64,000 bases of DNA from an uncultured Alphaproteobacteria bacterium (lineage in GTDB: Bacteria; Pseudomonadota; Alphaproteobacteria; Sphingomonadales; Sphingomonadaceae): NCBI GenBank assembly GCA_963837985.1, contig CAWIPN010000001.1:100418-164417 (forward strand), read 5' to 3'. This document shows, in pieces, positions 34,519 through 49,477 of the stretch. How positions within the stretch are numbered: the stretch's first letter is position 1; each line of letters starts with the position of its first letter. The position numbers were made by a program, and so were the translations under genes. Under the pieces are notes generated by a model. The model had not been told where the DNA came from. It searched no databases and worked only from the letters and a program-made list of their open reading frames with translations.

Positions 34519-37500
34519 CTATCCGACCAGCGCCAGCCTCGGCGGCTCCTGGACGGACAACTCCACATTGCCCTCGCCGGCGATCCGCTCGATCCGCGCC
34601 GCAAGTTCCGCGTCGAGAGCAAAGTCGCGGCCGGCGACAACGGTCGCCTCGCCCCCGCCTTCGAGAGGCAGGCGAAATCGAACCGCGCCGTTGCTTGCCC
34701 GCCGCGAGCATAGTTCGGCCGCGACCGCTCCGATGCAGGACGCATCGGCGATCGTCACCACCATCTGCAGGCGCGTTCTCTTCGCGAGCGACTCGATCGG
34801 CTGGAACCGCTTGATCGCCAGCCTTGGCAGGTCGTCCCCGGATTTCTTGTCGAGCTCGACTGAAATCAGTCCGCACGCCCCCGTCTCCGCCGCCTTTTGA
34901 AGCGCCTCGATCGGCTCGTCGTCGAACGCCGTCGCCTGGAACTGGCCCGACGGATCGCTCAGCGCAGCGGTCAGGAAACGGCGCCCCTTGGCCGACGTCC
35001 TCCAGCGCGCGTCCTCAACCATCGCCGCGATCGTCACTGTTACCCGCTCTCCCTCCCCGATCCGTACGTCCGCCAGTTCGTCGAAGCGTTTCACCTTGTG
35101 CGCCGCCAGCAGGTGCTGGTGCGTGTCGACGGGATGGCCGGAGAAATAGAAGCCGAAGGAATCCCGCTCGGCCGTCATCCTTTCGGCAAGAGACCAGTGG
35201 GATTCGGGAAGCCGGATCGGCGGGACGCTGGAATCCGCCGAGCCGAACAGCCCGTGCTGACCGCTTTCCCTCTGATCGGCGGCGCTTGCCGAATGGGCGA
35301 GGATGGTGTCGGCAGCGGCAAAGACCGAAGCCCTGTTCGACTCCAGGCAATCGAACGCTCCGCCGCCGGCGAGGCTTTCGATCTGACGCCTGTTGAGAAG
35401 CCTGGGTTCGACCCTGTCGGCGAACTGGTCGAGCGAGCTGAAGCGCCCGTTCGACTCGCGCTCTGCAACCACGACCTCCATCGCCTTTTCGCCGACGCCC
35501 TTGAGCGCCCCGAGCGCATAGCGGACCGCCCCCTCCTCGACTGTGAAGAAGGCGTCGCTCGAGTTGATGCACGGCGGCAGGCAATCGACCCCACCCCGGC
35601 GCATGTCCTCCACGAACAGCGCGAGCTTGTCCGTCTGGGCCATGTCGAAGCTCATGGAGGCGGCGTAGAATTCGGGCCGGTGGTGCGCCTTCAGCCAGGC
35701 CGTCTGGTAGGCGACGAGAGCATAAGCGGCCGCGTGGCTTTTGTTGAAGCCGTAGCCTGCGAACTTGTCGATCAAGTCGAACAGTTCGTTCGCCTTGGCC
35801 GCAGGAATGGCGTTGTGAGTCGCGCATCCTTCCACGAACGTCGCGCGCTGCGCGTCCATCTCGCTCTGGATTTTCTTGCCCATGGCGCGGCGCAGGAGGT
35901 CGGCGCTTCCAAGCGAGTAGCCCGCAAGCACCTGCGCGGCCTGCATTACCTGTTCCTGGTAGACGAAGATCCCGTAGGTTTCCCTGAGAATTTCTTCCAG
36001 GAGCGGGTGCGGATATTCGATCTTCGCGCGCCCGTTCTTGCGGTCGCCGAACATCGGAATGTTATCCATAGGACCGGGCCGGTAGAGAGCGACAAGCGCG
36101 ATGATGTCGCCGAAGCCGGTGGGGCGGACCGCCGAAAGCGTGCGCCGCATACCTTCCGATTCCAGCTGGAAAACACCGACGGTGTCGCCCCGCTGGAGGA
36201 GTTCGTAGACCGCCGGATCGTCGAGCGGGATCGAGGCGAGGTCGATCTCCACCGCCCGTTCTTCCAGCAGCCGCTGCCCCTCCTTGAGCACGGACAGCGT
36301 CTTCAGGCCCAGGAAGTCGAACTTCACCAGCCCCGCGGCTTCGACATATTTCATGTCGAACTGCGTAACCGGCATGTCGGAGCGCGGATCGCGGTAGAGC
36401 GGGACCAGCTCGTCGAGCGAGCGGTCACCGATGACCACGCCCGCCGCATGGGTGGAGGCGTGCCTGGGCAACCCTTCCAGCTTCATCGCCAGGTCGAACA
36501 GCCGCTTGACGTCGGCCTCGCCCTTGTACTCGGCGGCGAGCTCGGAAACCCCGTTCAACGACCGTTCGAGAGTCCACGGATCGGTCGGATGGTTGGGAAT
36601 GAGCTTGGCCAGCCGGTCGACCTGTCCGTAGCTCATCTGCAGGACTCGGCCCGTGTCCTTGAGGACCGCCCTCGCCTTCAGGCGCCCGAACGTGATGATC
36701 TGCGCAACCTTGTCGCGGCCGTACTTCGCCTGGACGTAAGCGATGACCCGGTCGCGATGGGTTTCGCAAAAGTCGATGTCGAAGTCGGGCATCGACACGC
36801 GCTCCGGATTGAGGAAACGCTCGAACAGCAGGTTCAGCTCGATCGGGTCGAGATCCGTGATAGTCAGGGCCCAGGCGACGACGGAGCCCGCGCCAGACCC
36901 GCGGCCGGGTCCCACCGGGATCCCGTTCGCCTTCGCCCATTTGATGAAGTCGGCGACGATCAGGAAGTAACCCGCGAACCCCATGTTGATGATGATTTCG
37001 AGCTCGTAGTCGAGCCGTTCGCGATAGCGTTTCAGCTCGTCGCTACCGCGCCCGTCGAGCCTTGCCTGGAGGCCAGCCAGAGCATCGCGCCGAAGCTGCT
37101 CGTCCTCGGCGTCGCTCAGGCTCGGGAGGATCGGCCGCCGCTTGGGCGCACCGACGGCGCAGCGCTGGGCGATGACGGCGGTATTGGCGATCGCTTCGGG
37201 AATATCCGCGAACAGCTCCGCCATCATCGGTCCGCTCTTGAGCCACGCCTCTGGCGATGAGGTCGCGCTCCGCTCCGAGCTTTCGACATATTCGCCCGCC
37301 GCGATGCATAGCATTGCGTCATGGGCGGCGTGGAAGGACGGATCGACGTAAGACGCCGGGTTGGTGGCCACCAGCGGAAGGTCGCGATCATAGGCAAGCG
37401 CGATCAGCGCCTCCTCCGCCGCCTCTTCGACGCGGTCGTTGCGGCGGATCAGCTCGATATACAGCCGGCGCTCGAACTGACCCTGAAGCTGGTCCAGATA

Positions 37501-37959
37501 CTGGGCGGCTTTCCTGTCCTGCTCTTCGGCGAGGAATCGGGCCAGCGCCCCCTCCCCTCCCGCAGTCATCGCGATCAGCCCCCCGCTCAGCGAGGCGAGC
37601 TTCTCAAACGCCACGTGCGGCTGCTGTTCGAGCGGCCGGTCGAGATGGGCCGCCGAGACCAGCTTGCACAGGTTGGCGTAGCCCTCGTCGTCCTTGGCGA
37701 GCAAAGCGAGCCAGTCGATGCCCTCGCCCAGCGACGGCGGCCGGGCGACCGCGAGCATCGTCCCGATCACCGGCTGGACGCCCTTTTCCATGCACGCCGA
37801 AGTGAAAGGCATGGCCGCGTAGAGCCCGTTGCGGTCGGTCAGCGCGACGGCCGGGAAACCGAGCTTCACCGCCTGGGCAGCGATGGCCTTCGGCTCCATC
37901 GCACCTTCGAGCATGGTGAAGCAGGAGAAGACTCGAAGCGGGACGTACGGCGCAGTCAC
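34519..37959 (-). CDS. dnaE: DNA polymerase III alpha subunit
   Basis: PHP domain (ALTD), GPGRGSGAGS, FERFLNPERVSMPDFDIDF, KFDFLGL, YGFNKSHAAAY; GTG start 37959; no intein-sized insert. Confidence 0.97.
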   Translation of the reverse strand: MTAPYVPLRVFSCFTMLEGAMEPKAIAAQAVKLGFPAVALTDRNGLYAAMPFTSACMEKGVQPVIGTMLAVARPPSLGEGIDWLALLAKDDEGYANLCKLVSAAHLDRPLEQQPHVAFEKLASLSGGLIAMTAGGEGALARFLAEEQDRKAAQYLDQLQGQFERRLYIELIRRNDRVEEAAEEALIALAYDRDLPLVATNPASYVDPSFHAAHDAMLCIAAGEYVESSERSATSSPEAWLKSGPMMAELFADIPEAIANTAVIAQRCAVGAPKRRPILPSLSDAEDEQLRRDALAGLQARLDGRGSDELKRYRERLDYELEIIINMGFAGYFLIVADFIKWAKANGIPVGPGRGSGAGSVVAWALTITDLDPIELNLLFERFLNPERVSMPDFDIDFCETHRDRVIAYVQAKYGRDKVAQIITFGRLKARAVLKDTGRVLQMSYGQVDRLAKLIPNHPTDPWTLERSLNGVSELAAEYKGEADVKRLFDLAMKLEGLPRHASTHAAGVVIGDRSLDELVPLYRDPRSDMPVTQFDMKYVEAAGLVKFDFLGLKTLSVLKEGQRLLEERAVEIDLASIPLDDPAVYELLQRGDTVGVFQLESEGMRRTLSAVRPTGFGDIIALVALYRPGPMDNIPMFGDRKNGRAKIEYPHPLLEEILRETYGIFVYQEQVMQAAQVLAGYSLGSADLLRRAMGKKIQSEMDAQRATFVEGCATHNAIPAAKANELFDLIDKFAGYGFNKSHAAAYALVAYQTAWLKAHHRPEFYAASMSFDMAQTDKLALFVEDMRRGGVDCLPPCINSSDAFFTVEEGAVRYALGALKGVGEKAMEVVVAERESNGRFSSLDQFADRVEPRLLNRRQIESLAGGGAFDCLESNRASVFAAADTILAHSASAADQRESGQHGLFGSADSSVPPIRLPESHWSLAERMTAERDSFGFYFSGHPVDTHQHLLAAHKVKRFDELADVRIGEGERVTVTIAAMVEDARWRTSAKGRRFLTAALSDPSGQFQATAFDDEPIEALQKAAETGACGLISVELDKKSGDDLPRLAIKRFQPIESLAKRTRLQMVVTIADASCIGAVAAELCSRRASNGAVRFRLPLEGGGEATVVAGRDFALDAELAARIERIAGEGNVELSVQEPPRLALVG

Positions 37960-38008
37960 CGCGTCACTATGGCACGACCGGCCCGGGATTGAAGCCGGCG
38001 CCACGCGC

Positions 38009-38017
38009 TTTTCCACA
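38009..38017 (+). promoter_or_regulatory. DnaA-box-like 9-mer upstream of dnaE
   Basis: TTTTCCACA matches TTWTNCACA. Confidence 0.4.
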
Positions 38018-38182
38018 GCTAGTTCGTGCGCAACACGGTGGCGCTTGACTGTTTCAATTTGTGTCAACCGATTGTCGTTAACCAATTTCTTGGTGACTCT
38101 GGCAGGATCGCGTGGAATCATGCGCGGGTAGCTGACGAGTGGGTGGCGGCGGCTGCAGTGGTGAACCAGGGGGCGTCACGCA

Positions 38183-38854
38183 ATGTATTCAGGTGCACTC
38201 GCCAGCCCGTCGGGCATTGGCGCAGAAGTCGGTCGTAATTCACGCACAACCCAATTCGAACCAGAATCAACCCGCAACCGGTCGGTCAGCAACTGCGACG
38301 TTCGCGGCCTTCCCTTTCTTTTTCCGCGCGGCGGGTGCCGTCTCGTCATCGACGCAAACGCGCGAATCCTGTGGTCGAGCGAGGGCGAGAACATTCTCGG
38401 CCGCGCCAATGGCTGCATCGCGGTCATGGATGGCCGGATCGTCGGGCGCACGCGCCACAGCGAGCGGCTGCTCAAGGGGCTGCTGGCCGATTGCAGGACC
38501 GCCGATCGGCCAACTCAGCAGCTTCTTTCCAGGGCCGCAAACGAGCTGCCCGAACTACTGGTAACCGCGCGGAGCTCGTCGAGGCCCGAATCCGACGTCA
38601 TTGCCCTGACGTTTCGCGAGCTTGCCGGAGAACTCGACGGCATTCCCGATCTCACTCGCCTGTACGGCCTGACGCCCACCGAGCATCAGATCACGGGGCT
38701 GATGCTCCAGGGCATGTCGGTGACGGCAATCGCGGAGGAGCTGAACAATTCCGTGCTGACGGTCCGTACGCACATCAAGCGCGCCTACGTGAAGCTGAAC
38801 GTCAGCTCGAAGGAGCAGCTCTTCTCGACCATCGTCAAGCTGATGGTCGGCTAA
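38183..38854 (+). CDS. LuxR-type HTH transcriptional regulator
   Basis: C-terminal LTPTEHQI..LMLQG.S...IAEELNNSVLTVRTHIKRAYVKLNVSSK; PAS-like middle; no REC domain. Confidence 0.9.
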   Translation: MYSGALASPSGIGAEVGRNSRTTQFEPESTRNRSVSNCDVRGLPFLFPRGGCRLVIDANARILWSSEGENILGRANGCIAVMDGRIVGRTRHSERLLKGLLADCRTADRPTQQLLSRAANELPELLVTARSSSRPESDVIALTFRELAGELDGIPDLTRLYGLTPTEHQITGLMLQGMSVTAIAEELNNSVLTVRTHIKRAYVKLNVSSKEQLFSTIVKLMVG

Positions 38855-38889
38855 CGCGCCGAGGCGGATGCCACCCCGGCGTTGCGCCC

Positions 38890-39330
38890 TCAATCGGACA
38901 AAACCGAGACGGTCAGCGTATTCAGAAGCGCATCCCGCTCCGCAGGCGTGGGATGAGGCAGTGTAATCGTCATCAGACCGCTCTGGTCGACCGGGCCGCT
39001 GTATCGAAAGCTCATCTCCGAATCCGTCGTCTGGTCCGGCTGCTTGCCCGCATAGTCCGTCTTCGTGTGCGTAAGGTCGGCACCTGCGCCCTTGTTCACG
39101 TGAAGAAGGAGCGTGTGCCCCTTGTTGCAGCCGTGATCTATGAACAGCGTGATTTTCAAGTCCTGGTCGGGCGTGACCTGGAGATCGTGGATCCGCGCGT
39201 TGCACTTGGCCTCGAGCGTCCCGGACAGCGGGATTTTCACCGAGGTCTGGGCGGTCGCGTCCGTCGATGCCGCCGCAGCGAGCAAGAGCGTCACCGCAGT
39301 AGCGAGAGTTGAACTGCGAACGGTCATCAT
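38890..39330 (-). CDS. Secreted minor pilin-like subunit
   Basis: Signal peptide, then QTSVKIPLSGTLEAKC (matches major pilin N-terminus), two Cys; last gene of pilus operon. Confidence 0.65.
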   Translation of the reverse strand: MMTVRSSTLATAVTLLLAAAASTDATAQTSVKIPLSGTLEAKCNARIHDLQVTPDQDLKITLFIDHGCNKGHTLLLHVNKGAGADLTHTKTDYAGKQPDQTTDSEMSFRYSGPVDQSGLMTITLPHPTPAERDALLNTLTVSVLSD

Positions 39331-40265
39331 TTTGGCTCCACTGTCACGGTGATAACATCTTCGTACTGGCCGGCGACCCTTCCGCGAACGTCGAGAATGC
39401 GAGCGGCTATCCGGTAGTTGTCGGCTCCCAGACCGTGCGTGGTCGAACGGTCTATGCGCTTCGCACCCGTGCTGAGATCGACTGTCTGGTTGTCGATTGT
39501 GAGCGAGTAGGGAATTCCCGGGACGCCGGTGCCTTCGAAGCGATGGCGCATTTGGCTCCGAAATTCCGATGAAAGCGTCAGCATGACGGGCGACGTGGCG
39601 CGGACCTGGATGTAGGCGTCGCGCTCTTCCCCTTGTTCAAGCTGACCGAAATCCAGGCCGCTACCGCTGATCCCGCCAAATATCGGCGAGCTACTCCCGG
39701 CAAGGTTGATTTGCGCACGCGCCGGAATGTCGACGAGAATCGACACGATCTGATCCTCTCCGGTTTGCTCCGGCACGCCATTCACCACACGGAACAGCCG
39801 AACGGTAATATCGTCGCGATACGTACCGGCAGGCGCGAACTGTCCCGCAGGCACGATTACCTTCACCGTCTCCACGGGGGAGCCGCGCTGGATGTCCGCG
39901 CCCTTGGGTCCGTTTCCGGGATTGGGCGTAATGACCGCCGTCGGCAGGTTGAGGTCGTTTCGAACGTTCCCGCCGCGAAATTCGAGTTCGTATTCGAGCG
40001 TATGCCCATTGCCCTGCAGAAAGCGTTGGGTGCTCGTTCCCAAGCCGCCCAGCGCAAGGCCGAAGCTGCACCCTTTCATCCGGGGCGTGAACATCAGTTC
40101 GAACTGCTCCGTCTCCCGGACGTTCTCGAAGGGGTCGTAAATCAGCCGGACCATGGTCGAATCCGGACGCACACGTATGAAGCAGTTGTCCGGCGGCACG
40201 TCCGCCAAGGCGGGAGAGGCCACAAAGAGTAGCGACAGCCAAGCGGCCGCGATCGTAGTCTTCAT
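39327..40265 (-). CDS. Two-domain fimbrial tip adhesin-like protein (spore coat U-like domains)
   Basis: Signal peptide; repeated domain ends PAGTYRDDITV and AGQYEDVITVTV; LDFG.L motif; ATGA coupling to usher. Confidence 0.65.
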   Translation of the reverse strand: MKTTIAAAWLSLLFVASPALADVPPDNCFIRVRPDSTMVRLIYDPFENVRETEQFELMFTPRMKGCSFGLALGGLGTSTQRFLQGNGHTLEYELEFRGGNVRNDLNLPTAVITPNPGNGPKGADIQRGSPVETVKVIVPAGQFAPAGTYRDDITVRLFRVVNGVPEQTGEDQIVSILVDIPARAQINLAGSSSPIFGGISGSGLDFGQLEQGEERDAYIQVRATSPVMLTLSSEFRSQMRHRFEGTGVPGIPYSLTIDNQTVDLSTGAKRIDRSTTHGLGADNYRIAARILDVRGRVAGQYEDVITVTVEPK

Positions 40266-42727
40266 TGTTCTTTCCCCGCCTTTGCGACCACCCGTCCGAC
40301 TTCCACGATTCCCTCACGGGACTCCGGAACGACGATGTCTGTGGTCAAATCATCCGGTCCGATCCGGATGCGGTAACGCCCTGGTGCGAGGCCGGTCGCG
40401 ACGAACCGGCCCGCCTTGTTGGTGAATATCTGGGTCTTGGTCTTCTTCGGCTTGTCGAGCCATTCGACGGAGCCGACTGCCAGGCCCACGGGGGTTCCGT
40501 CAGCGCCCACGAGGTTCCCCTGCACCGTCCGGTTCTCATCGGATCCGACTTGCGCGAGATAGCCGGTCGCCGGGCCGGGCATCAGCTCGTAGTAAGACTT
40601 GCCCGGGTCGTAACCGTCAGGGAGGTCGACCGCGCGCAACGTGACCTTCCTTGGCGCGTGCGGACCGCCCGCCGGGGCGAGCGCCGGGCCGAACCACCCG
40701 GAACGGGCGATGATCTTCTCGTCCTCGATGCCCTGTGTCACGAGCACGTCGCTGTCGAGTGTGCGATGCGGATAGGCCAGGAGGAAATTGGAGCCCACGG
40801 GCCGCCCGAGGGCGAACCTGCCGCCCGCAAATGCAAGCTCGGTCGCGATTGAATAGGAGCTGCGCTGTTCGATGTTGCTACCGTTGCGGTCAGCAGTGAC
40901 GTCGTGGCGAACGGCTAGGAAGGCGCGGTTCGCATTGTAGGTCAACTCACCGGAGCCATCGAGGCCGTCATGACCACGGCTGAACACAGCGCGATATCCA
41001 AAGTCGCTCAGGCTGTTGTCGCGGAAGCGGGAAAGCTCGAACTGCGCCGTTCCCGCCCTGCTGTCATAGGACGAACGGCTGTTTCGACGCGGCCCGAGAG
41101 ACCGTCCGAACGTGATGAAGAAGCGCGACGCCGCGCCCTCGTCGGTTCGTGACCGCTCGACATTGGCGCTGACGCTGAATCCCGCCAGCTGAACCGAAAC
41201 GGAGGCGCCATAGGAATAAAGGGCGGGACGGTCTGCCCTGCGCGTCGTCACCAGGCCGAACAGGCCAATTCCGAACCGCTTGAAAACACTGGCCGAGATT
41301 CGGCTGCGCAGGTCGAACTTGCTGAGGTCGCTGCCCGGGATGTCGCCCAACGCAACGAAATTCTTCGACTTTGTTCCGACCTCCACATCCACGGTGGGAT
41401 TGTAAATCGGGCCGAAGCCGCTGCCGCCGATCTGGTAGCTCAGCAGCAGTTGGTGGCCCATTCCGGCGACCTCGTCGCGGGACATCGCCGCGGCCAGCGC
41501 GAATGTACCGAACTTGCTCGCCCAGCCGGCGCTCACGCCCGCCATCGCCTGGTGCTTGTCGGCCTGGAAATCGGCGCCCGCGGTGAGCGTCTGGGTTATC
41601 CCACGGCGATAGTAGCCCGTCACCGTCGGACTTCCCGAATAAGTGATCAGCCCGTCGTCGTTCCGAAGCTGCGGAACGCCCGCGTAGAACCCGAACTCCG
41701 ACAGTCCGGGGTCGAGCAGGTTGAAATTGAAGAACTGCGAAAAGGACGCGATCAGCCGCCGCCCATAGTCGTCGACGACGTAAATCTCGATCTTGTTCAG
41801 CCCGGACGCGAAGTTGAAGTCGCGGACGTCGTACTGCCCCCGCTCGAGCCGGTAAGCTCTCGTCGGAGCGCCGTTGACGAGGATTTCCACCGTCGCCGCT
41901 TGCTCGAGAGCGAATTTGAACAGGCCCGCCGGGCGCACGTTCCGGTACGGCTGCAGCTCCGAATAATTCTTCTCGATGCCGATGCCCCCGATCGGAGCCC
42001 CGCCCTGGAACCCCGTGGTCGTGGGCGAGATGTCGCCTGCGAGATAGCGCATGGCGGTGTCGCGATTTTCGTGGGTCAGCGTGATTGCACCGCGTCGAAA
42101 CCGCCGCCGCTCGCTGCCGTCGTAATAGGTCTCGGCGAACAGGTTGAACCCGTTTTCCCCGCCGAGATTGAACGCCGTCTGGTTGGCGACCTTCACCGGC
42201 TCGAACGTGCTGAACAGCCCGTTGTCGTGGGACACCGCCTGGCTCAGGCTCAGAATCGAGGAGCCGGAGAACGCCGCCGGCTGGTCGAACTTGGTGGAGT
42301 CGATTTCCGGACCGGAGACGACCTCGATCGACCGGGCACCCTGCTCCTTCAGCGGGATCGAGGCATGGATTTCCAGCGTCTCGGGATTGTATTCGACCTT
42401 GACTCCGGCCTCGTTCAGAATCGTCGCCGGGACCATTCCGCCCGCCGCTTCCGGCGCCGCGATTTTCGCCTTGGTTTCGGGTTTGAGCCGGTCGCCCATC
42501 AACCGGACGAAATCGTCGTAGTTGACGGAGAAGCGGTCGCCATCGGTCACTTCGGCGGCGATGTCGCCCAGGTAGCTGCCGGAAAAGATCAGCGGCAGGT
42601 TGATTCGCGTGGCGGCCTGCGGGGGGCGCTCGGGCGCCACCTGCGCGAATGCCGGCATTGGTGCAGCCATCGCCAGCACCAGAGGAATGGCGCTGCGGGT
42701 CAGCAGGTGCCGTGAACGGGCCCTCAT
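40262..42727 (-). CDS. Fimbrial outer-membrane usher
   Basis: 821 aa, signal peptide, beta-barrel pattern, GDI.P..TGFQ....GGIGIEKNY, ATVEILVNG....YRLE.GQYDVRDF..SGLN.I, YYRRGIT..LTAG. Confidence 0.88.
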   Translation of the reverse strand: MRARSRHLLTRSAIPLVLAMAAPMPAFAQVAPERPPQAATRINLPLIFSGSYLGDIAAEVTDGDRFSVNYDDFVRLMGDRLKPETKAKIAAPEAAGGMVPATILNEAGVKVEYNPETLEIHASIPLKEQGARSIEVVSGPEIDSTKFDQPAAFSGSSILSLSQAVSHDNGLFSTFEPVKVANQTAFNLGGENGFNLFAETYYDGSERRRFRRGAITLTHENRDTAMRYLAGDISPTTTGFQGGAPIGGIGIEKNYSELQPYRNVRPAGLFKFALEQAATVEILVNGAPTRAYRLERGQYDVRDFNFASGLNKIEIYVVDDYGRRLIASFSQFFNFNLLDPGLSEFGFYAGVPQLRNDDGLITYSGSPTVTGYYRRGITQTLTAGADFQADKHQAMAGVSAGWASKFGTFALAAAMSRDEVAGMGHQLLLSYQIGGSGFGPIYNPTVDVEVGTKSKNFVALGDIPGSDLSKFDLRSRISASVFKRFGIGLFGLVTTRRADRPALYSYGASVSVQLAGFSVSANVERSRTDEGAASRFFITFGRSLGPRRNSRSSYDSRAGTAQFELSRFRDNSLSDFGYRAVFSRGHDGLDGSGELTYNANRAFLAVRHDVTADRNGSNIEQRSSYSIATELAFAGGRFALGRPVGSNFLLAYPHRTLDSDVLVTQGIEDEKIIARSGWFGPALAPAGGPHAPRKVTLRAVDLPDGYDPGKSYYELMPGPATGYLAQVGSDENRTVQGNLVGADGTPVGLAVGSVEWLDKPKKTKTQIFTNKAGRFVATGLAPGRYRIRIGPDDLTTDIVVPESREGIVEVGRVVAKAGKEQ

Positions 42728-43443
42728 TGCGTCACCGGCGCAACTCGCTCGGCCGCGATCGGTCCCACCAGCTCCGTAGTCAGGGGAATGTCCGCCGTGC
42801 GCGTCGCACCGGGCGTAATCCAGCGAAGGTTGAAGCGGTCGCGCAAGGTCGCCGGGTCGATCTGCAACGCATCGGCACCCGAGCCGAGCCGCAGCCCTTC
42901 GCTGTCGATCCTGCCGTAGCTCTTGCCGAGGTTTGCGAAGGTGACCCGCGCGATATTCCCGTCCGCAACCGCCAATTCGATCACGATGTCGGGCTTCGCG
43001 CCTTCGGGAACGACGTTCGCAATCGTCTTGAAATCGAACAGGAAGCGGAGCTTGGGATCGGCCTTCGCGCCCTCGATCGGCACCTGCCGGAAGGAGATCG
43101 CGTAGGTCGTCGAGCGGTCAATTGCCTTGTCGCCGACATAGCGGATCCGCACCTGCTCCCGCTCGCCGGCGCCGACGATGAATTGCGACGGGATGATTTC
43201 GAAGTCCGGCGCGGCGGGCGAATCGATTGGCTGCCCGTCGGCATCGAAGGTTCGGCGCGCGACCTTGACCTCCACTGCCATGCCCCGGTTCTGGCTGTTC
43301 CAGAACTCGATCTTGCGCGCGGCGCCCCGGCCCTCGGGCGCAAGGTCGTACACCATCGGGGTCACGTTCTGCGCGACCGCCGGAGCCGGCGCGACGGCGA
43401 CGGCCGTCGCAATCGCCAGCAGGAAGGGTCGCGCGCTGATCAT
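42724..43443 (-). CDS. PapD-like periplasmic pilus chaperone (second copy)
   Basis: Signal peptide, NVTPMVYDL, FEIIPSQFIV.AG.REQVRIRY, TYAISFRQVP, N.GKSY. Confidence 0.8.
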   Translation of the reverse strand: MISARPFLLAIATAVAVAPAPAVAQNVTPMVYDLAPEGRGAARKIEFWNSQNRGMAVEVKVARRTFDADGQPIDSPAAPDFEIIPSQFIVGAGEREQVRIRYVGDKAIDRSTTYAISFRQVPIEGAKADPKLRFLFDFKTIANVVPEGAKPDIVIELAVADGNIARVTFANLGKSYGRIDSEGLRLGSGADALQIDPATLRDRFNLRWITPGATRTADIPLTTELVGPIAAERVAPVTQ

Positions 43444-43450
43444 AGACGGG

Positions 43451-44146
43451 TTAGATCAGCGGGCCGATCATCTTCAGCGTCGGCTGCCCCGAAACGTCCG
43501 GAACGAGGAACTCGCGCTTCGCTCCCGGCGGGATCAGGGTACGCCCTGCGATGTCGGCGAGCTTGGTGCCTTGAACTACTGTGCCGCCGAAATCGAGCGA
43601 CAGCGCATCGACATAGATGAAGCGGTCGCCGTCATTGCGGATCGTCACCATGACGCCGCCGTCGGCGGGCGCCGACGCTTCGAGCACCGGCTTGGGCCGC
43701 ATCGACGGAGTGGCTACGTGAATCGATGCGCCGATTCGAAGGATTCGCTGGACGCCTGAGTCATTTTTCTCGCTCAGGTCGACGGGGATTTCGCTCGCGT
43801 AGAGCGTGAAGGAGCGCGATTTGTCGATCGCGCCGCCCACCCACTGGACCCGCACCGCCTGGCTCTTGCCCGGCGGGACGGTCGCCTGGACCGGGAAAAT
43901 CGTGAACAAATCGTCGGCCGGGGTCTGGACCTCGGTCCCGTCGGGATTCACCTTGCGCTCGACCACGTCGAACGACACCGGCAACGGGACATTTCTGGGA
44001 TTCCTGACGGCGATTCGAATGCCGCCCGCGTCCTTCGGCAGGTTGATCACGTTGATCGTCGGCTGCACGTCCATCGCGGCGGCGGGGACGGCCAGCATCG
44101 CGGCAAGGACGAGGAAGAGGCGGATTACATGGCGAGGCATCGGCAT
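43451..44146 (-). CDS. PapD-like periplasmic pilus chaperone (first copy)
   Basis: Signal peptide, MDVQPTINVI, FTIFP.QATVPPGKSQAVRVQW, FTLYASEIP, N.GDRFIY. Confidence 0.82.
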   Translation of the reverse strand: MPMPRHVIRLFLVLAAMLAVPAAAMDVQPTINVINLPKDAGGIRIAVRNPRNVPLPVSFDVVERKVNPDGTEVQTPADDLFTIFPVQATVPPGKSQAVRVQWVGGAIDKSRSFTLYASEIPVDLSEKNDSGVQRILRIGASIHVATPSMRPKPVLEASAPADGGVMVTIRNDGDRFIYVDALSLDFGGTVVQGTKLADIAGRTLIPPGAKREFLVPDVSGQPTLKMIGPLI

Positions 44147-44185
44147 TTCCCGGGACGTTAAAGGCAGGACCGTAAACAAAAGTTT

Positions 44186-44214
44186 GAGCCGGGGAGCATG
44201 ATGCCCCCCGGCCC
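44186..44214 (-). terminator. Hairpin between major pilin and chaperone (partial terminator or mRNA stabiliser)
   Basis: 13-bp G:C/G:U stem GGGCCGGGGGGCA/TGCTCCCCGGCTC followed by AAACTTTTGTTT on minus strand. Confidence 0.6.
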
Positions 44215-44225
44215 AAGAGCCACCC

Positions 44226-44701
44226 TTAGTTCGGGGTGATCTCAGCAGTGACGGTGTCGGTGTACGTACCGGCGATCGTCGCAGGAGTGTCAAGCTGGAC
44301 GCTCATGCCGCGGGTCTGGTCGGCATTGGCAACCGTCGGGAAGCCAGTGATCGACTGCGGCGAGGAAAGCGAAACGCCCGCCGCCCACGTCGTGCCCGAA
44401 CCGCTGACGATGAACTTGTACGGAACAGCGTTCGAACCGCTCTTCAGGCTGCCGCTATTTGCGGACGAAAAGGTGACGGTCGCGCTGCCACCATAGTTGC
44501 AGTTTGCGGTCAGCAACTCGGCGCCCTGCACAGCCGTGCTGGTCATGTTGAGGGCATCGAACGGACCGTTCAGGTAAGCGGAGATCGAGCAGCTCTTTGC
44601 GAGCGTGCCCGACAGCGGAATATCGTGACGCTGGTGTCAGCAAAAGCCGGCGTTGCGGCAAAAGCCGTCGAAGCGACGGCAGCAAGAAGAAGCTTTTTCA
44701 T
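44226..44701 (-). pseudogene. Major pilin subunit interrupted by an apparent 2-bp (AT) insertion at 44620-44623
   Basis: Signal peptide MKKLLLAAVASTAFAATPAFA; removing AT gives DTSVTIPLSGTLAKSC..TANCNYGG..AGTYTDTVTAEITPN (157 aa). Confidence 0.8.
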
Positions 44702-44803
44702 GAGAAGTCCTTTGCGTTGGGTGAAGCCGAGGGTTCGCCGCCCCGCAAAGGATTGCGCCCCCCCACCAGCCGCTTTCGAGTCATGGCCGACTCGGCTGCG
44801 GCG

Positions 44804-44818
44804 GTAACGATTCGTTAA
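44804..44818 (-). promoter_or_regulatory. CtrA-box-like site containing a GANTC (CcrM) site upstream of the pilin
   Basis: Minus strand TTAA-CGAATCG-TTAC (TTAA-N7-TTAA with one mismatch); GATTC at 44809-44813. Confidence 0.5.
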
Positions 44819-44921
44819 GTCGTTGCCGGAACCGGCGCGTCCCCAATATTGGTTACGCCGGAAAATATTTCCCAAAATGAGACAATGACTTGCGGACGCT
44901 CCGCGAGCGCAGCCTCCCCGG

Positions 44922-45191
44922 CTACAGCGGCCGGCGCTGTTCCAGCCACGCCGCCGCCTCGGCAATCACGAAGCCGGAATGATCCTCGTCCACCCGCGAA
45001 ACCCAGATCCGGTCGCCCGGGGCGACATGCGCGGACAAGTGGTGGCGAAGCGTGTCGGCATCGGTCGGGGAATCGACCAGGTGCGCTCCGTCCAGAAGGC
45101 GGATGCTGTCATACTGGTCCAGGACTTCGTGAAGGCCGCTATAGTCGCGGCCGTTCTGCTGAAGATCGAACGCAACGCAATACACCGCCAC
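44922..45191 (-). CDS. Small stand-alone Cas2/VapD-like (ferredoxin-fold) protein
   Basis: GAGGGGG RBS plus GTG; (M)AVYCVAFDL....DYSGL...L.......LLD..HLV.......LRHHL..HV..GDRIWV pattern. Confidence 0.55.
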   Translation of the reverse strand: MAVYCVAFDLQQNGRDYSGLHEVLDQYDSIRLLDGAHLVDSPTDADTLRHHLSAHVAPGDRIWVSRVDEDHSGFVIAEAAAWLEQRRPL

Positions 45192-45290
45192 TGCACACCC
45201 CCTCGAGAGTCCCGATTCGGCACTCAAGCTATTAATCGGGTTTACCGGCGAGCGTATAAGAAAATTGTGACGGTTACGGTTTAATCGCCG

Positions 45291-46244
45291 TCAACCACGC
45301 CACCGATCGGCCATGATGTCGCTGATCTCGCGCATCCGGCTCCGATAAGTGTTGGCGATGCAATCGTTGGACCCACAGCAATTCCGGAACGCCAGGAATC
45401 GATCGCGCGTGCGGTTCAAAAGCCGCCGCTGGCCCTTGTCGGCGTTCATCAGCGCGCGATTGAACTGCGACGCCATCTGCCGGTCCAGGGCGGCAAGGCC
45501 GGGATCGTTGCACACGGCGATTTCGGAGCGCGTGCTGGCGTCGGCGCAATCGAAGCTGGGGTTCGCCTTCTGCGGCTGCGGCTGCGGCGGCTGTTGCGGC
45601 TCGGGCGTTTGCGCCATGTCCGGCTGCTGCCCGACTTGCGAATCCGGCTGCCCGGTCAGATCGATCGATGGTTGCGGCGCCGGCTGGCTGGGCGCCGTTC
45701 GCGACAGGGTCGCCAGCGGGATGACGAGCGAATCCACGTTCCCGAGGCGGATGACGTTGCCGCTGTGGTCGGCAGCCGGCTGGATCGTGTAATCGATGTC
45801 GCCGGACAAGGATCGCCGCCCTCCATCGGCCGCCACTCCCGGCGGCAGGCTGAGCACCGCAACCCCGCTGCAGCTGACGCTGTGCAGGCGGTCGTCGATA
45901 CCGCGCACCACGGGCCCGCTCATGCGGAGGAGCGCGAAATCCGCCAGTCGCGTGTACTGCTGCTCGTCGCTTCCGCGCACTTCCGCCGCCCGGCGGAAAA
46001 GCTCCCGGCGAATGGCGTCATAAGTCGCTTGCGCGGAACACCAGGCGTCGGGATTGAAATCGGCCTGTTTCGCGGCCTGCGGCTTCGGGGCGGTCTCTTC
46101 GGCCGTGAAGCGGTTGTCCCACAGCGACGATCCGGCGAGCAGCACCCCGGCGACGACGGCGGCGAGAAGAGCCGCGACCAGCCACCACGTCCGTCGCCGG
46201 CGCGGCGGATGCTCGTGGACGATCTCGACATCCTCGTCGGTCAT
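45291..46244 (-). CDS. Membrane-anchored LprI (DUF1311) lysozyme-inhibitor-like protein
   Basis: N-terminal TM, Pro/Gln linker, C-terminal PSFDC..A...E.AVC.D..LAALD..M..RDRFLA.R..C....C. Confidence 0.8.
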
Positions 46245-46915
46245 TCAAGCACCCCTTCGTGAAGGCGCACCACCCGGTCCATCTTCCTGGCGAGCCGCTC
46301 GTTGTGCGTGGCGACGAGCGCCGCACTGCCCTCCCCCTTCACCAGCGAAAGGAATTCGCCGAGCACGGTGTCGGCGGTCGCTTCGTCGAGATTGCCGGTG
46401 GGCTCGTCGGCAAGAACGAGCGGCGGGCGGTTGGCGAGCGCGCGTGCGGCCGCGACCCTCTGCTGCTCTCCGCCCGACAGTTTCGCGGGGCGATGCTCCA
46501 GCCGGTTCGCAAGCCCCAGCTTGGTCAGCAGCTCGCCGGCGCGATCGCGCGCTTCCTGCGGCTCGGCGCCGCGGACGAGCTGCGGAAGCACGACATTCTC
46601 CAGGGCCGTGAACTCGGGAAGCAGGTGGTGGAACTGGTACACGAAGCCGAGCAAGTTGCGACGAAGCCGCGTTCGGTTCTCGTCATTGAGCACCGAGGCT
46701 TCCTGGCCTCCGAGCCGGATCGATCCTTCGAACCCGCCCTCCAGAAGCCCGACCGCCTGCAGGAGCGTCGATTTGCCCGATCCGGACGGGCCCAGCAACG
46801 CGACGATCTCGCCCGGCATCACCTGCAGGTTCACCCCGCGAAGCACCTCGATCGTGACGTCGCCCTGGCGAAAGCTTCGCCGCAGGTCGCGCGTTTCGAG
46901 AACCGGCTCACTCAT
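46241..46915 (-). CDS. lolD: Lipoprotein-releasing ABC transporter ATPase
   Basis: [41 protein letters not shown]. Confidence 0.96.
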
Positions 46916-48158
46916 AACGAAGCACCTGCACCGGATCCGTGCTCGCCGCTTTCCACGCAGGGTAGAGCGTGGCGAGGAAGGACAGCACCAGCGCGACGAT
47001 GACGATGGCGGTGACTTCGAACGGATCGGTCTTGGAGGGCAAATCGGTGAGGAATCGAACCGACGGGTCCCACAAATTCTGGCCGGTCAGATACTGGATC
47101 GCGTTCACCACGTCCTGGCGGAAGAAAAGGAAGATCGCGCCGAGAACCAGCCCCAGGAGGATTCCGAGCGACCCGATGGTGACGCCGACCGTCACGAACA
47201 CCTTCATCATCCCGCGCCGGCTCGCGCCCATTGTGCGCAGGATCGCGATGTCGCGCGTCTTGGCCCGGACCAGCATGATCAGCGACGACAGGATGTTGAA
47301 CACCGCGACGAGCACGATCAGCGACAGCACCACGAACATCGCCACGCGCTCCACTTCGAGCGCTTCGAAGAGGGCCGAGTTCATCTGCTTCCAGTCGACG
47401 ATGATCCCCTTGCCCTGCACCAGCGGCTTCAGGGGCGCGATGATCGAATCCACCCGGTCGGGATCGGTCGTCTGGACTTCGATGGTGCTGACGTTGTCGC
47501 CCATCAGGAGCAAATTCTGCGCGTCCTGCATCGGCATGACGACGAAGCTGTTGTCGTAATCGTAGATGCCGACCTCGAATACCGCCCCGACGGTGTACGA
47601 CACGATGCGCGGCACCGTTCCGACCACCGTGGAGCGGCCTTCGGGACTGATCAGGCTGATGGTGCTTCCCGGATAGGCGCCCAGCGTTTCTGCAAGGCGC
47701 GACCCGATTGCGACGCGGCCGCTTCCCGGCGAAACGAGGCGAAGGTCGCCAGCCTGCACATTGCCCGAAATGACCGGATTGTGCTGAATGTCGTCCATTC
47801 GCATGCCGCGAACCAGCACGCCTTCCACCCGCCCGTTGGACGAGGCCATAAGCGGCTGCTCGATCAGCGGAGTCGCGGAGGTGACTCCGGGCAGCTTGCG
47901 CGCCTTGTCGGCAATGCTTTTCCAGTCCGGAAGCTGGCCTTCATAGCCCTGGACGATCGCGTGCCCGTTGAGCCCGGTGATCTTGTCGAACAGCTCGGCC
48001 CGGAAGCCGTTCATCACGCTCATCACGATGATCAGCGCGGCAACTCCGAGCGCGACCGCCAGAAGGCTGATGGAGGCGACGAGGAAGATGAAGCCCTCCC
48101 CTTTGCCGGGGAGAAGGTAACGGCGAGCGACCATCCGCTCGTACGAATTGAGGATCAT
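46908..48158 (-). CDS. lolE: Lipoprotein-releasing ABC transporter permease LolC/E
   Basis: [57 protein letters not shown]. Confidence 0.95.
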
Positions 48159-49477
48159 CCCGTCAGCCTCGCAAGCGCGCTCTCGACGCTCAGTTCCTCA
48201 CGCTCGCCGGTCGCCCGGCGCTTCAGCTCGACCACGCCGTTCGCGACCCCGCGCGGGCCGACGATGACCTGCCAGGGCAGGCCGATCAGGTCCATCGTGC
48301 CGAGCTTCACGCCGCCGCGGTCGTCGCGGTCGTCGTACAGCACCTCAATTCCCGCTCGCCGCAGGTCCGAATAGATTCGATCGGCGGCGGCGACCGTCGC
48401 CTCGTCGTCGTGCCGCATCGTGACAACGCCCACTTTCCACGGGGCAACCGATTCCGGCCAGATTATTCCCGCTTCGTCGTGGCTCGCTTCGATGATCGCC
48501 GCGACCAGGCGCGACACGCCGATCCCGTAGCTTCCCATCATCGGCGTGATCATCTGCCCGTCCGGGCCAGACACCTTCAGGCCCATCGATTTCGAATATT
48601 TGTCGCCGAAGTAGAAGATGTGACCCACTTCGATCCCGCGGCCGGTGCGCTTACGCTCGTCGGAAACGTCCGCCCAGCGCGCCTCGTCGTGAGTTTCGTC
48701 GGTGGCCGCATAGGTACAGCTGACGTCGGTGAAGAGGTTGTGGAGGCCCACCGGGTCGTCGTAGCCGAGCCCGGACCGGCTCCAGTCCATGTCGTCGAAG
48801 GCGGCATCATAGAAGACTTCGCTCTCGCCCGTGGGAGCAAGAACGATGAACTCGTGCGAAAGGTCGCCGCCGATCGGGCCCGATGCGGCCGCCATCGGCA
48901 CCGCCCGGATTCCCATCCGCGAAAAGGTGCGCAGGTACGCGAGGAGCTGGGTGTAGTAACTGAGCCGCGCACCGGCCTCGTCGAGGTCGAAGCTGTAGGC
49001 GTCCTTCATCAGGAATTCGCGGCCGCGCATCACTCCGAACCGCGGTCGCACTTCGTCCCTGAATTTCCACTGTATGTGATAGAGCGTGCGCGGGAGGTCG
49101 CGGTAGCTCTTGGTGTCGTCGCGGAACAGCGACGTGATCATTTCCTCGTTGGTCGGCCCGTAGAGCATCTCGCGCTCGTGCCGGTCGCGGATCCGCAGCA
49201 TTTCCGGCCCGTAGGCGTCGTAGCGGCCGCTCTCCCGCCACAGCTCTGCGCTCTGAAGCGTCGGCATCAGCACTTCCTGAGCGCCTGCGCGGTCCTGCTC
49301 CTCGCGAACGATCTCCTCGATTTTTTGCAGCACGCGCACGCCGATCGGCAGCCACGCATATATCCCCGCAGCGGTCTGGCGGACGAGGCCGGCACGAAGC
49401 ATCAGCTTGTGACTGACGATTTGCGCGTCCGACGGGCTTTCCTTCAGGACCGGCAGAAAGGCGCGCGAAAACCGCAA
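48155..49477 (-). CDS. proS: Proline--tRNA ligase (short type without INS editing domain)
   Basis: TTG start after [58 protein letters not shown]. Confidence 0.96.

Follow-up and report, generated by a model that had tools for sequence, protein, structure and literature searches.

The 64-kb stretch of sphingomonad DNA analyzed here (the window; part of contig CAWIPN010000001.1, assembly GCA_963837985.1) carries on its minus strand a gene cluster that we assign with high confidence to a chaperone-usher pilus of the archaic type. The region very probably specifies an archaic (sigma-type, Csu/CupE-like) pilus of a distinct two-chaperone subclade. In the open reading frame (ORF) map, the genes run in the order pilin, chaperone, chaperone, usher, two-domain adhesin, and small subunit. 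Five of these structural genes are intact and one, the pilin gene, is frameshifted; in this genome the rod subunit is most likely not exported and the pilus probably not made. An initial annotation of this DNA had described a six-gene pilus operon with overlapping genes. Its layout held, as the ORFs and overlaps were found where it had placed them and the same order is present in eight other independent loci, but the pilin does not form a single ORF: the annotation had missed a +2 nucleotide (nt) insertion. The elements of the locus are as follows.

38183-38854, plus strand: LuxR/GerE-family transcription regulator, 223 amino acids (aa) for the longest possible ORF; convergent with the operon at its end
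38890-39330, minus strand: putative small minor pilin, 146 aa, with a signal peptide
39327-40265, minus strand: two-domain tip adhesin, 312 aa, with a signal peptide
40262-42727, minus strand: predicted outer-membrane usher, 821 aa
42724-43443, minus strand: chaperone 2, PapD-like, 239 aa; adjoins the usher gene
43451-44146, minus strand: chaperone 1, PapD-like, 229-231 aa; adjoins the pilin gene
44184-44216, minus strand: stem-loop between the pilin and chaperone 1 genes, 15 bp plus a U-run, from a terminator scan
44226-44621, minus strand: mature part of the major pilin (IPLSGTLAKSC...AGTYTDTVTAEITPN), out of frame with the signal peptide
44570-44701, minus strand: 5′ part of the major pilin gene, encoding the signal peptide MKKLLLAAVASTAFAATPAFA and then DTSVTI; ATG at 44701, stop codon at 44570-44572
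44758-44764, minus strand: run of seven G (G7) inside a conserved GGTGGGGGGG block, some 60 nt before the pilin start codon
44803-44818, minus strand: second upstream block, TTAAC-N5-GTT(T)ACC, which in the window is the perfect palindrome TAACGAATCGTTA
44839-44856, no strand assigned: palindromic motif ACCAATATTGGGGAC (pattern CCAAnnTTGGKGAY), lying some 146 nt before the pilin start codon

The translations of the six structural genes each begin with a Sec signal peptide that ends in AxA. Three 4-bp overlaps of the ATGA type link chaperone 2 to the usher, the usher to the adhesin, and the adhesin to the small subunit.

We place the locus in the archaic (sigma) class because its subunits are SCPU proteins, its chaperone profile matches CsuC best, its adhesin model matches CsuE best, its pilin has the characteristic Cys16 and donor strand, and its usher is modeled with an usher fold. 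When read through the insertion, the pilin matched SCPU at 28.6 bits (cutoff 22.4) over residues 26-152 of 157. Its mature N terminus, D1-T-S-V-T-I-P-L-S-G-T-L-A-K-S-C16, presents alternating hydrophobic residues (V4, I6, L8, and L12) ahead of Cys16, and a second Cys follows 30 residues further on; both cysteines are invariant in 11 pilins and five small subunits. In CsuA/B, the donor residues are Val8, Leu10, and Ile12, and a disulphide joins Cys16 to Cys62 (PMC4654587). As judged from alignment, the donor strand and Cys pair of the window pilin are arranged as in CsuA/B, with Cys16 at the same position. The Cys pair and the C-terminal AGTYxDxxT motifs that the initial annotation had pointed out are present in the sequences, and its suggestion of a chaperone-usher pilus with archaic (Csu/spore-coat-U) affinity is borne out by the SCPU subunits and the CsuC and CsuE matches.

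The adhesin has two domains that each end in an AG(T/Q)Y.D.IT motif. Its C-terminal domain is SCPU (26.5 bits, cutoff 22.4, residues 243-308), and Cys28 and Cys66 are invariant. The mature protein begins DVPPDNC and lacks an alternating hydrophobic stretch that could act as a donor strand, which fits a non-polymerizing tip subunit. An AlphaFold2 model of the adhesin, with a predicted local distance difference test (pLDDT) score of 81.8, found CsuE as its best solved match (6fjy_B, from the CsuC-CsuE complex; E=5.6e-12), followed by CfaE/CfaB, CupB6, FimH, and PapG.

These subunits also bear on whether the products form a fiber at all. Protein U is placed on Myxococcus spores by an archaic chaperone-usher system, and the SCPU family takes its name from a spore-coat protein. 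Moreover, chaperone-usher systems can form non-fimbrial structures (PMC4390875), such that the proteins encoded here might be built into a surface coat or capsule-like layer instead of long pili. We regard this as quite improbable, as a CsuE-like two-domain adhesin without a donor strand, together with a single pilin with a canonical one, points to a tipped fiber. The function of such a pilus would be adhesion or biofilm formation.

The 821-aa protein is an outer-membrane usher according to transitive homology and its structure model. PF00577 was matched by 20 of 28 usher homologues (best E 1.7e-13); homologues bearing this domain are about 30% identical to the window usher, and the ushers of the Microbulbifer and Noviherbaspirillum loci (L017 and L018) score above the Pfam cutoff. 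The AlphaFold2 model (pLDDT 82.1) matched full-length FimD (3rfz, E=2.7e-36) and also PapC, with alignments of 700-830 columns and template modeling (TM) scores of 0.59-0.72 with FimD. No archaic usher was present among the solved-structure matches of the model. A 28-sequence usher profile matched no usher in the PDB, and a genome scan with the single usher sequence found nothing.

Both chaperones are PapD-like. Chaperone 2 matched PapD_N at 25.7 bits (cutoff 23), while chaperone 1 fell just under the cutoff at 21.1 bits (E=3.2e-4); the two are 28% identical to each other. A profile of 12 chaperone sequences, compared with solved structures, matched CsuC first (E 1.4e-4), EcpB second (E 0.017), and then the classical chaperones SafB and Caf1M. 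The proline that aligns to CsuC Pro59, the invariant proline of PapD-like D1 domains, is kept in 12 of 12 chaperones of the profile.

Several observations weigh against the archaic placement. As a single sequence, the usher found no match in Pfam, NCBIfam, or the PDB. Neither a CsuA/B nor a CupE1 chain appeared among the PDB matches of the pilin profiles, and the likeness in sequence to Acinetobacter baumannii Csu is so slight that neither the window pilin nor the usher finds a Csu chain there. We also looked at the carboxylate anchor of non-classical chaperones, which in CsuC consists of Arg89, Tyr196, and Arg174. Arg89 is a hallmark of non-classical chaperones. In a weak hidden Markov model (HMM) alignment, the Arg89 column contains Thr in chaperone 1 and Ala in chaperone 2, and the Arg89 anchor is not evident there; the Arg174 column of the same alignment contains Arg in chaperone 2 but not in chaperone 1. 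More generally, the sigma placement draws on the SCPU subunits, on the matches to CsuC and CsuE, and on transitive homology rather than on an usher tree, and the pilus itself is known here from genes and predicted structures.

The initial annotation had likened the locus to E. coli ecpRABCDE. Like that locus, which encodes the E. coli pilus ECP, the window contains two chaperone genes and a gene for a LuxR-type regulator. ECP has the chaperones EcpB and EcpE, with EcpB only presumed to be cognate to EcpA (PMC4654587). An ECP-like system of the alternative (alpha) class would also account for the second place of EcpB among the structures matched by the chaperone profile, for CfaE and CfaB lying just behind CsuE in the adhesin comparison, and for a weak NCBIfam EcpR match of the regulator (E 5.6e-4). 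This match, however, is through the helix-turn-helix (HTH) only and amounts to 20 bits against a cutoff of 300; CsuC leads EcpB about 100-fold in E-value; and the subunits here are SCPU, unlike those of ECP. In addition, the window chaperone genes are adjacent, whereas those of ECP are separated by the usher and adhesin genes, the gene order is unlike ecpRABCDE, and the regulators are not orthologous. We give an ECP-like system almost no weight, and the likeness is reduced to an analogy between members of different chaperone-usher classes. It looks convergent, and ECP is the best functional analogy for a division of labor between chaperones.

Within the archaic class, the locus departs from the canonical gene set of major pilin, minor pilins, one chaperone, usher, and adhesin: its two chaperone genes are adjacent, no minor pilin is encoded upstream, and a further pilin gene follows that of the adhesin. 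This is a difference of layout, not of class. A. baumannii Csu (csuA/B-A-B-C-D-E) shares with the window SCPU-type subunits, a donor strand before a Cys at mature position 16, and an usher gene followed directly by an adhesin gene, and its CsuC and CsuE are the top matches of the chaperone profile and the adhesin model. It differs in having one chaperone rather than two. In the window, no minor pilins lie between pilin and chaperone; a small pilin instead follows the adhesin, and the linked LuxR-type regulator has an N-terminal domain of its own. Pseudomonas aeruginosa CupE (cupE1-6) belongs to the same class, and its usher and adhesin genes overlap, as they do here; for cupE this has been taken to suggest translational coupling (PMC10104325). 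CupE differs from the window in its single chaperone and its two upstream minor pilins.

The nearest single-chaperone usher relatives among the loci we fetched are multi-pilin clusters from Novosphingobium jiangmenense (L005), a JGI metagenome genome (L006), and Vibrio maerlii (L011). Their ushers are 27-30% identical to that of the window, although the Microbulbifer and Noviherbaspirillum ushers are equally distant, and their chaperone shares about 29% identity with each of the two window chaperones. In L005 and L006, a gene of 294-357 aa follows the usher gene, and the L006 product matches the window adhesin. These two loci are laid out like Csu and CupE and differ from the window: they have one chaperone and four to seven tandem pilin genes, and no small-subunit gene follows that of the adhesin.

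The two-chaperone arrangement is not restricted to the window. Homologues were collected by an A2 alignment scan of genomes, which gave five loci, and a metagenome scan, which gave two. The identical six-gene order was present in eight other independent loci (L002, L004, L008, L009, L013, L014, L015, and L016), which derive from GCA_016851065, Sphingomonas arenae, a Sphingopyxis metagenome-assembled genome (MAG), an alphaproteobacterial MAG, and four metagenome contigs. Because the order recurs in eight independent loci, the arrangement is not due to chance. The Microbulbifer and Noviherbaspirillum loci contain pilin, chaperone, chaperone, usher, and adhesin genes and are without the small subunit. 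As judged from these loci, the two-chaperone layout appears to mark a lineage that crosses proteobacterial classes (alpha, beta, and gamma).

The genes of this lineage differ widely in conservation. Averaged over all pairs of the nine six-gene loci, the pilin and chaperone 1 are the best conserved, at 61% and 62% identity; the usher stands at 49% and the adhesin at 45%, and chaperone 2 and the small subunit are lowest at 40% each. The spread is greater between classes: relative to Microbulbifer and Noviherbaspirillum, the window proteins are 57-68% (pilin) and 51% (chaperone 1) identical, whereas the usher reaches 28%, the adhesin 30-33%, and chaperone 2 at most 23%. Of the components of chaperone-usher clusters, the usher is said to be the best conserved (PMC10104325). 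Since the pilin and chaperone 1 are far more conserved here, the pattern is unusual.

How new is this system? Archaic chaperone-usher systems are already known in alphaproteobacteria (PMC4654587), and we therefore regard the locus as a variant within a known class rather than a new class. Extra chaperones are also sometimes carried by chaperone-usher operons (PMC10104325). Among the papers searched, none dealt with archaic chaperone-usher pili with two chaperones, and none with such pili in Sphingomonas, in keeping with the remark in the initial annotation that chaperone-usher pili are little studied in sphingomonads. The distinct fimbrial subtype proposed there stands in part, as an uncharacterized sub-branch whose usher and small subunit are missed by Pfam and NCBIfam, but not as a new class. 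Thus, the locus probably belongs to a distinct, uncharacterized two-chaperone subclade. What appears to be new is the uncharacterized two-chaperone architecture, the inverted conservation pattern, the extra pilin paralogue, and the presence of a regulator and a candidate operator of its own.

A larger synthesis can be offered only tentatively, as we lean slightly against its holding in full. An undescribed two-chaperone archaic lineage would span alpha-, beta-, and gammaproteobacteria, with an unusually conserved module of pilin and private chaperone (51-74% identity between classes) and with usher, adhesin, and chaperone 2 at 23-33%; to this, sphingomonads would have added a single-copy pilin paralogue as terminator or adaptor, a dedicated LuxR-type regulator, and a palindromic operator.

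The rate differences suggest how the chaperones might divide their work. Homologues of chaperone 1 formed 64 clusters, 63 of them at least 47% identical to it; these clusters include gamma- and betaproteobacteria (Microbulbifer and Noviherbaspirillum, respectively) and S. changnyeongensis. Chaperone 2 and the second chaperone of Microbulbifer are 23% identical (E=1e-10), with an hhalign probability of 98.4%. One possibility, which we rate as an even call, is that chaperone 1 is dedicated to the rod pilin, with the adhesin and the small subunit handled by chaperone 2. This division is supported, not proven, by the contrast in rates across the nine loci, by the contrast between classes, and by gene loss in L019. 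A point against it is that partial correlations of pairwise identities (mirror-tree, partial on the usher) gave no specific chaperone-subunit signal. E. coli ECP presents a comparable assignment, in which EcpA, the major subunit, is allotted to EcpB, and EcpD, found at the tip, to EcpE.

L019 is a locus in the complete genome of Sphingomonas changnyeongensis (CP047895.1, 8001-12663). There, chaperone 2 is absent, leaving a gap of 133 nt between the chaperone 1 and usher genes, and a frameshift splits the adhesin into parts of 115 and 171 aa; the pilin, chaperone 1, usher, and small subunit are intact.

The small subunit encoded after the adhesin is a paralogue of the major pilin. In alignment, it has a near-identical donor segment (QTSVKIPLSGTLEAKC compared with DTSVTIPLSGTLAKSC), the same Cys pair, and a similar C-terminal strand, and it matched the L002 pilin by BLASTP at E=3e-8. 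No Pfam or NCBIfam family was assigned to it, and it gave no SCPU match. An exhaustive HMMER search of 1.84 billion representatives recovered only about 13 homologous proteins, of 136-149 aa, which suggests a minor pilin of narrow range. The gene is present in all nine six-gene alphaproteobacterial loci and in L019, whereas L017 and L018 lack it; on this distribution, the trailing small pilin appears to be an addition limited to alphaproteobacterial loci.

Because its donor strand is that of the pilin, the small subunit should fit the acceptor groove of either the adhesin pilin domain or the pilin. It could act as an adaptor or as a chain terminator. The 4-bp overlap with the adhesin gene suggests that its stoichiometry is similarly low to that of the adhesin.

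We now turn to the lesion in the major pilin gene. The signal-peptide frame that begins at 44701 reads MKKLLLAAVASTAFAATPAFADTSVTI and then meets a stop codon at 44570, while the mature pilin (IPLSGTLAKSC...TPN) is read in the -1 frame from 44621 to 44226. DNA alignment with three intact relatives revealed a +2 nt insertion, with ACGATATTCCG in the window compared with AACATTCCG or AGCATCCCG in the relatives. The insertion resembles a duplication of AT (ATAT) at about 44619-44623 and lies after codon 27, directly past the signal peptide. Since no start codon is present in the downstream frame before an internal Met, the mature pilin can obtain no signal peptide. The pilin is intact in all 11 related loci compared, including the eight other six-gene loci; in these relatives it is 154-185 aa long, and in the 11 loci it is 50-74% identical to the window pilin.

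We judge it rather likely that the frameshift is real and not an artefact. A 2-nt insertion outside a homopolymer is not a usual sequencing error, and the ATAT context is atypical for current platforms; we noticed no further gene of the cluster to be broken; and at the insertion point the pilin is intact in every one of the related loci. If the insertion instead arose in sequencing or assembly, the operon would be fully functional and the strain would make the pilus. The other five genes, which are intact and equal in length to their orthologues, agree with that reading. Also weighing on that side, no public sequencing runs covering the pilin stretch were listed and no independent reads over it were obtained, so the frameshift may be an assembly error. 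We consider an artefact unlikely, though deserving of serious weight. With a real lesion, the pilus is most likely not made, since the insertion parts the signal peptide from the mature pilin, and the intactness of the other five genes suggests that inactivation was recent. A fitting annotation for the locus is an operon for an archaic chaperone-usher pilus in which the major pilin gene is disrupted, and adhesion should not be assumed. Programmed frameshifting and phase variation at the lesion were considered and rejected, as the site lacks a slippery heptamer and contains just two AT units.

The regulator gene at the end of the operon encodes a protein with a C-terminal HTH (Pfam GerE, E=1.8e-11, residues 163-214). 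Homology begins near 38336, and the only in-frame ATG, GTG, or TTG upstream of this point is at 38183. The protein is about 30% identical over 172-174 aa to the products of the GerE genes that adjoin the pilin genes of L004 (S. arenae) and L016 (E 5e-15 and 9e-16). Its N-terminal domain is common to the cluster-linked regulators of relatives, whereas other GerE genes were matched through the HTH only. In L002, L004, and L014, the linked regulator gene lies upstream and points the same way as the cluster, and in L015 and L016 it is upstream but divergently transcribed; a convergent downstream gene of this family was found only in the window. In Noviherbaspirillum, an unrelated GerE gene occupies the same convergent position. 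Thus, of the linked LuxR regulator described in the initial annotation, the linkage extends to relatives, but the convergent position is peculiar to the window, as the gene is upstream in relatives.

Upstream of the pilin gene, three conserved elements follow one another toward the pilin: the palindrome at 44839-44856, the block at 44803-44818, and the G7 block. The CCAAnnTTGGKGAY palindrome has a single site in the window. It is also found at one place per locus, always upstream of the pilin, in L002, L004, L014, L015, L016, and L019, all of which are independent sphingomonad loci with GerE genes nearby. From this pattern, we infer that the palindrome is a candidate operator of the linked LuxR-type regulator. 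L004, L015, and L016 retain the GGTGGGGGGG block, whereas in L002 and L014 it is interrupted. Its G7 run recalls the homopolymer tracts of phase-variable fimbrial promoters, but is short and is broken up in those two relatives.

The spacer between the pilin and chaperone 1 genes also contains a conserved feature. A perfect GC-rich hairpin of 10-15 bp was present there in eight of eight loci tested, although its sequence varies. Stem-loops after the major-subunit gene act as attenuators or stabilizers in other chaperone-usher operons. The stem-loop at 44184-44216 is likely to be an attenuator or mRNA-stabilizing hairpin that sets the excess of pilin over assembly proteins. A search of Rfam with 38000-46400 returned no family, and a scan for sigma-70 promoters found none.

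In four relatives (L002, L004, L014, and L015), genes for a MASE1-domain histidine kinase and a GerE-type response regulator lie beside the cluster. This two-component system is a further point of likeness to CupE, as PprAB controls cupE, and suggests that the pair would be an extra, dispensable layer of control. The window contains no adjacent histidine kinase or response regulator gene, in which respect it differs from CupE.

These features suggest a model for assembly. In the periplasm, chaperone 1 would bind the SCPU major pilin, while chaperone 2 would bind the two-domain tip adhesin and probably also the small pilin paralogue. As the adhesin has no donor strand, the usher would take it first. 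The fiber would then grow by donor-strand exchange through the N-terminal segment T-S-V-x-I-P-L-S-G-T-L that precedes Cys16. With the same donor strand as the pilin, the small subunit could enter once as an adaptor that joins adhesin and rod, or could sit at the base and act as a terminator. The stem-loop after the pilin gene would raise pilin levels over those of the downstream genes, which would be coupled translationally through the ATGA overlaps, and the LuxR/GerE-type regulator would act on the conserved palindromes upstream of the pilin gene. In this genome, the +2 nt insertion would stop pilin export.

Among pilus classes, archaic chaperone-usher pili have been called the most widespread and the least understood. 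What is known of their mechanism comes from Csu and CupE, with one chaperone each (PMC4654587, PMC10104325). The two-chaperone lineage may offer a simple system in which to study how archaic chaperones discriminate between subunits, how fiber length or tip attachment is set, and why a surface-exposed pilin is more constrained than its usher.

The cluster is flanked on one side by dnaE (34519-38121) and on the other by two genes that could not be annotated, followed by lolD and a lolE-like gene. A check for markers next to the cluster found no tRNA gene, mobility gene, or island marker, and the base composition of the cluster is like that of its flanks. Since the neighborhoods of the cluster are quite different in relatives, the cluster appears to move between genomic locations. 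The two genes between the cluster and lolD are both on the minus strand, are without a Pfam family, and have no counterpart beside the cluster in relatives. The first (44922-45227) encodes a protein of 101 aa. The second (45291-46244) encodes a protein of 317 aa that starts with a membrane anchor, continues with a Pro/Gln-rich linker, and has a C-terminal domain that contains Cys; it has weak NCBIfam matches only.

Only 35 nt (38855-38889) separate the stop codons of the convergent regulator and small-subunit genes. Within this spacer lies a GC-rich inverted repeat that has no T-run and might serve both genes as a bidirectional terminator. Long ORFs (421-787 aa) are also present on the plus strand at 34897-37260, 41450-42715, and 46302-48374, antisense to dnaE, the usher gene, and the lolD/lolE-like genes; these are typical shadow ORFs at about 64% G+C and are not to be read as genes.

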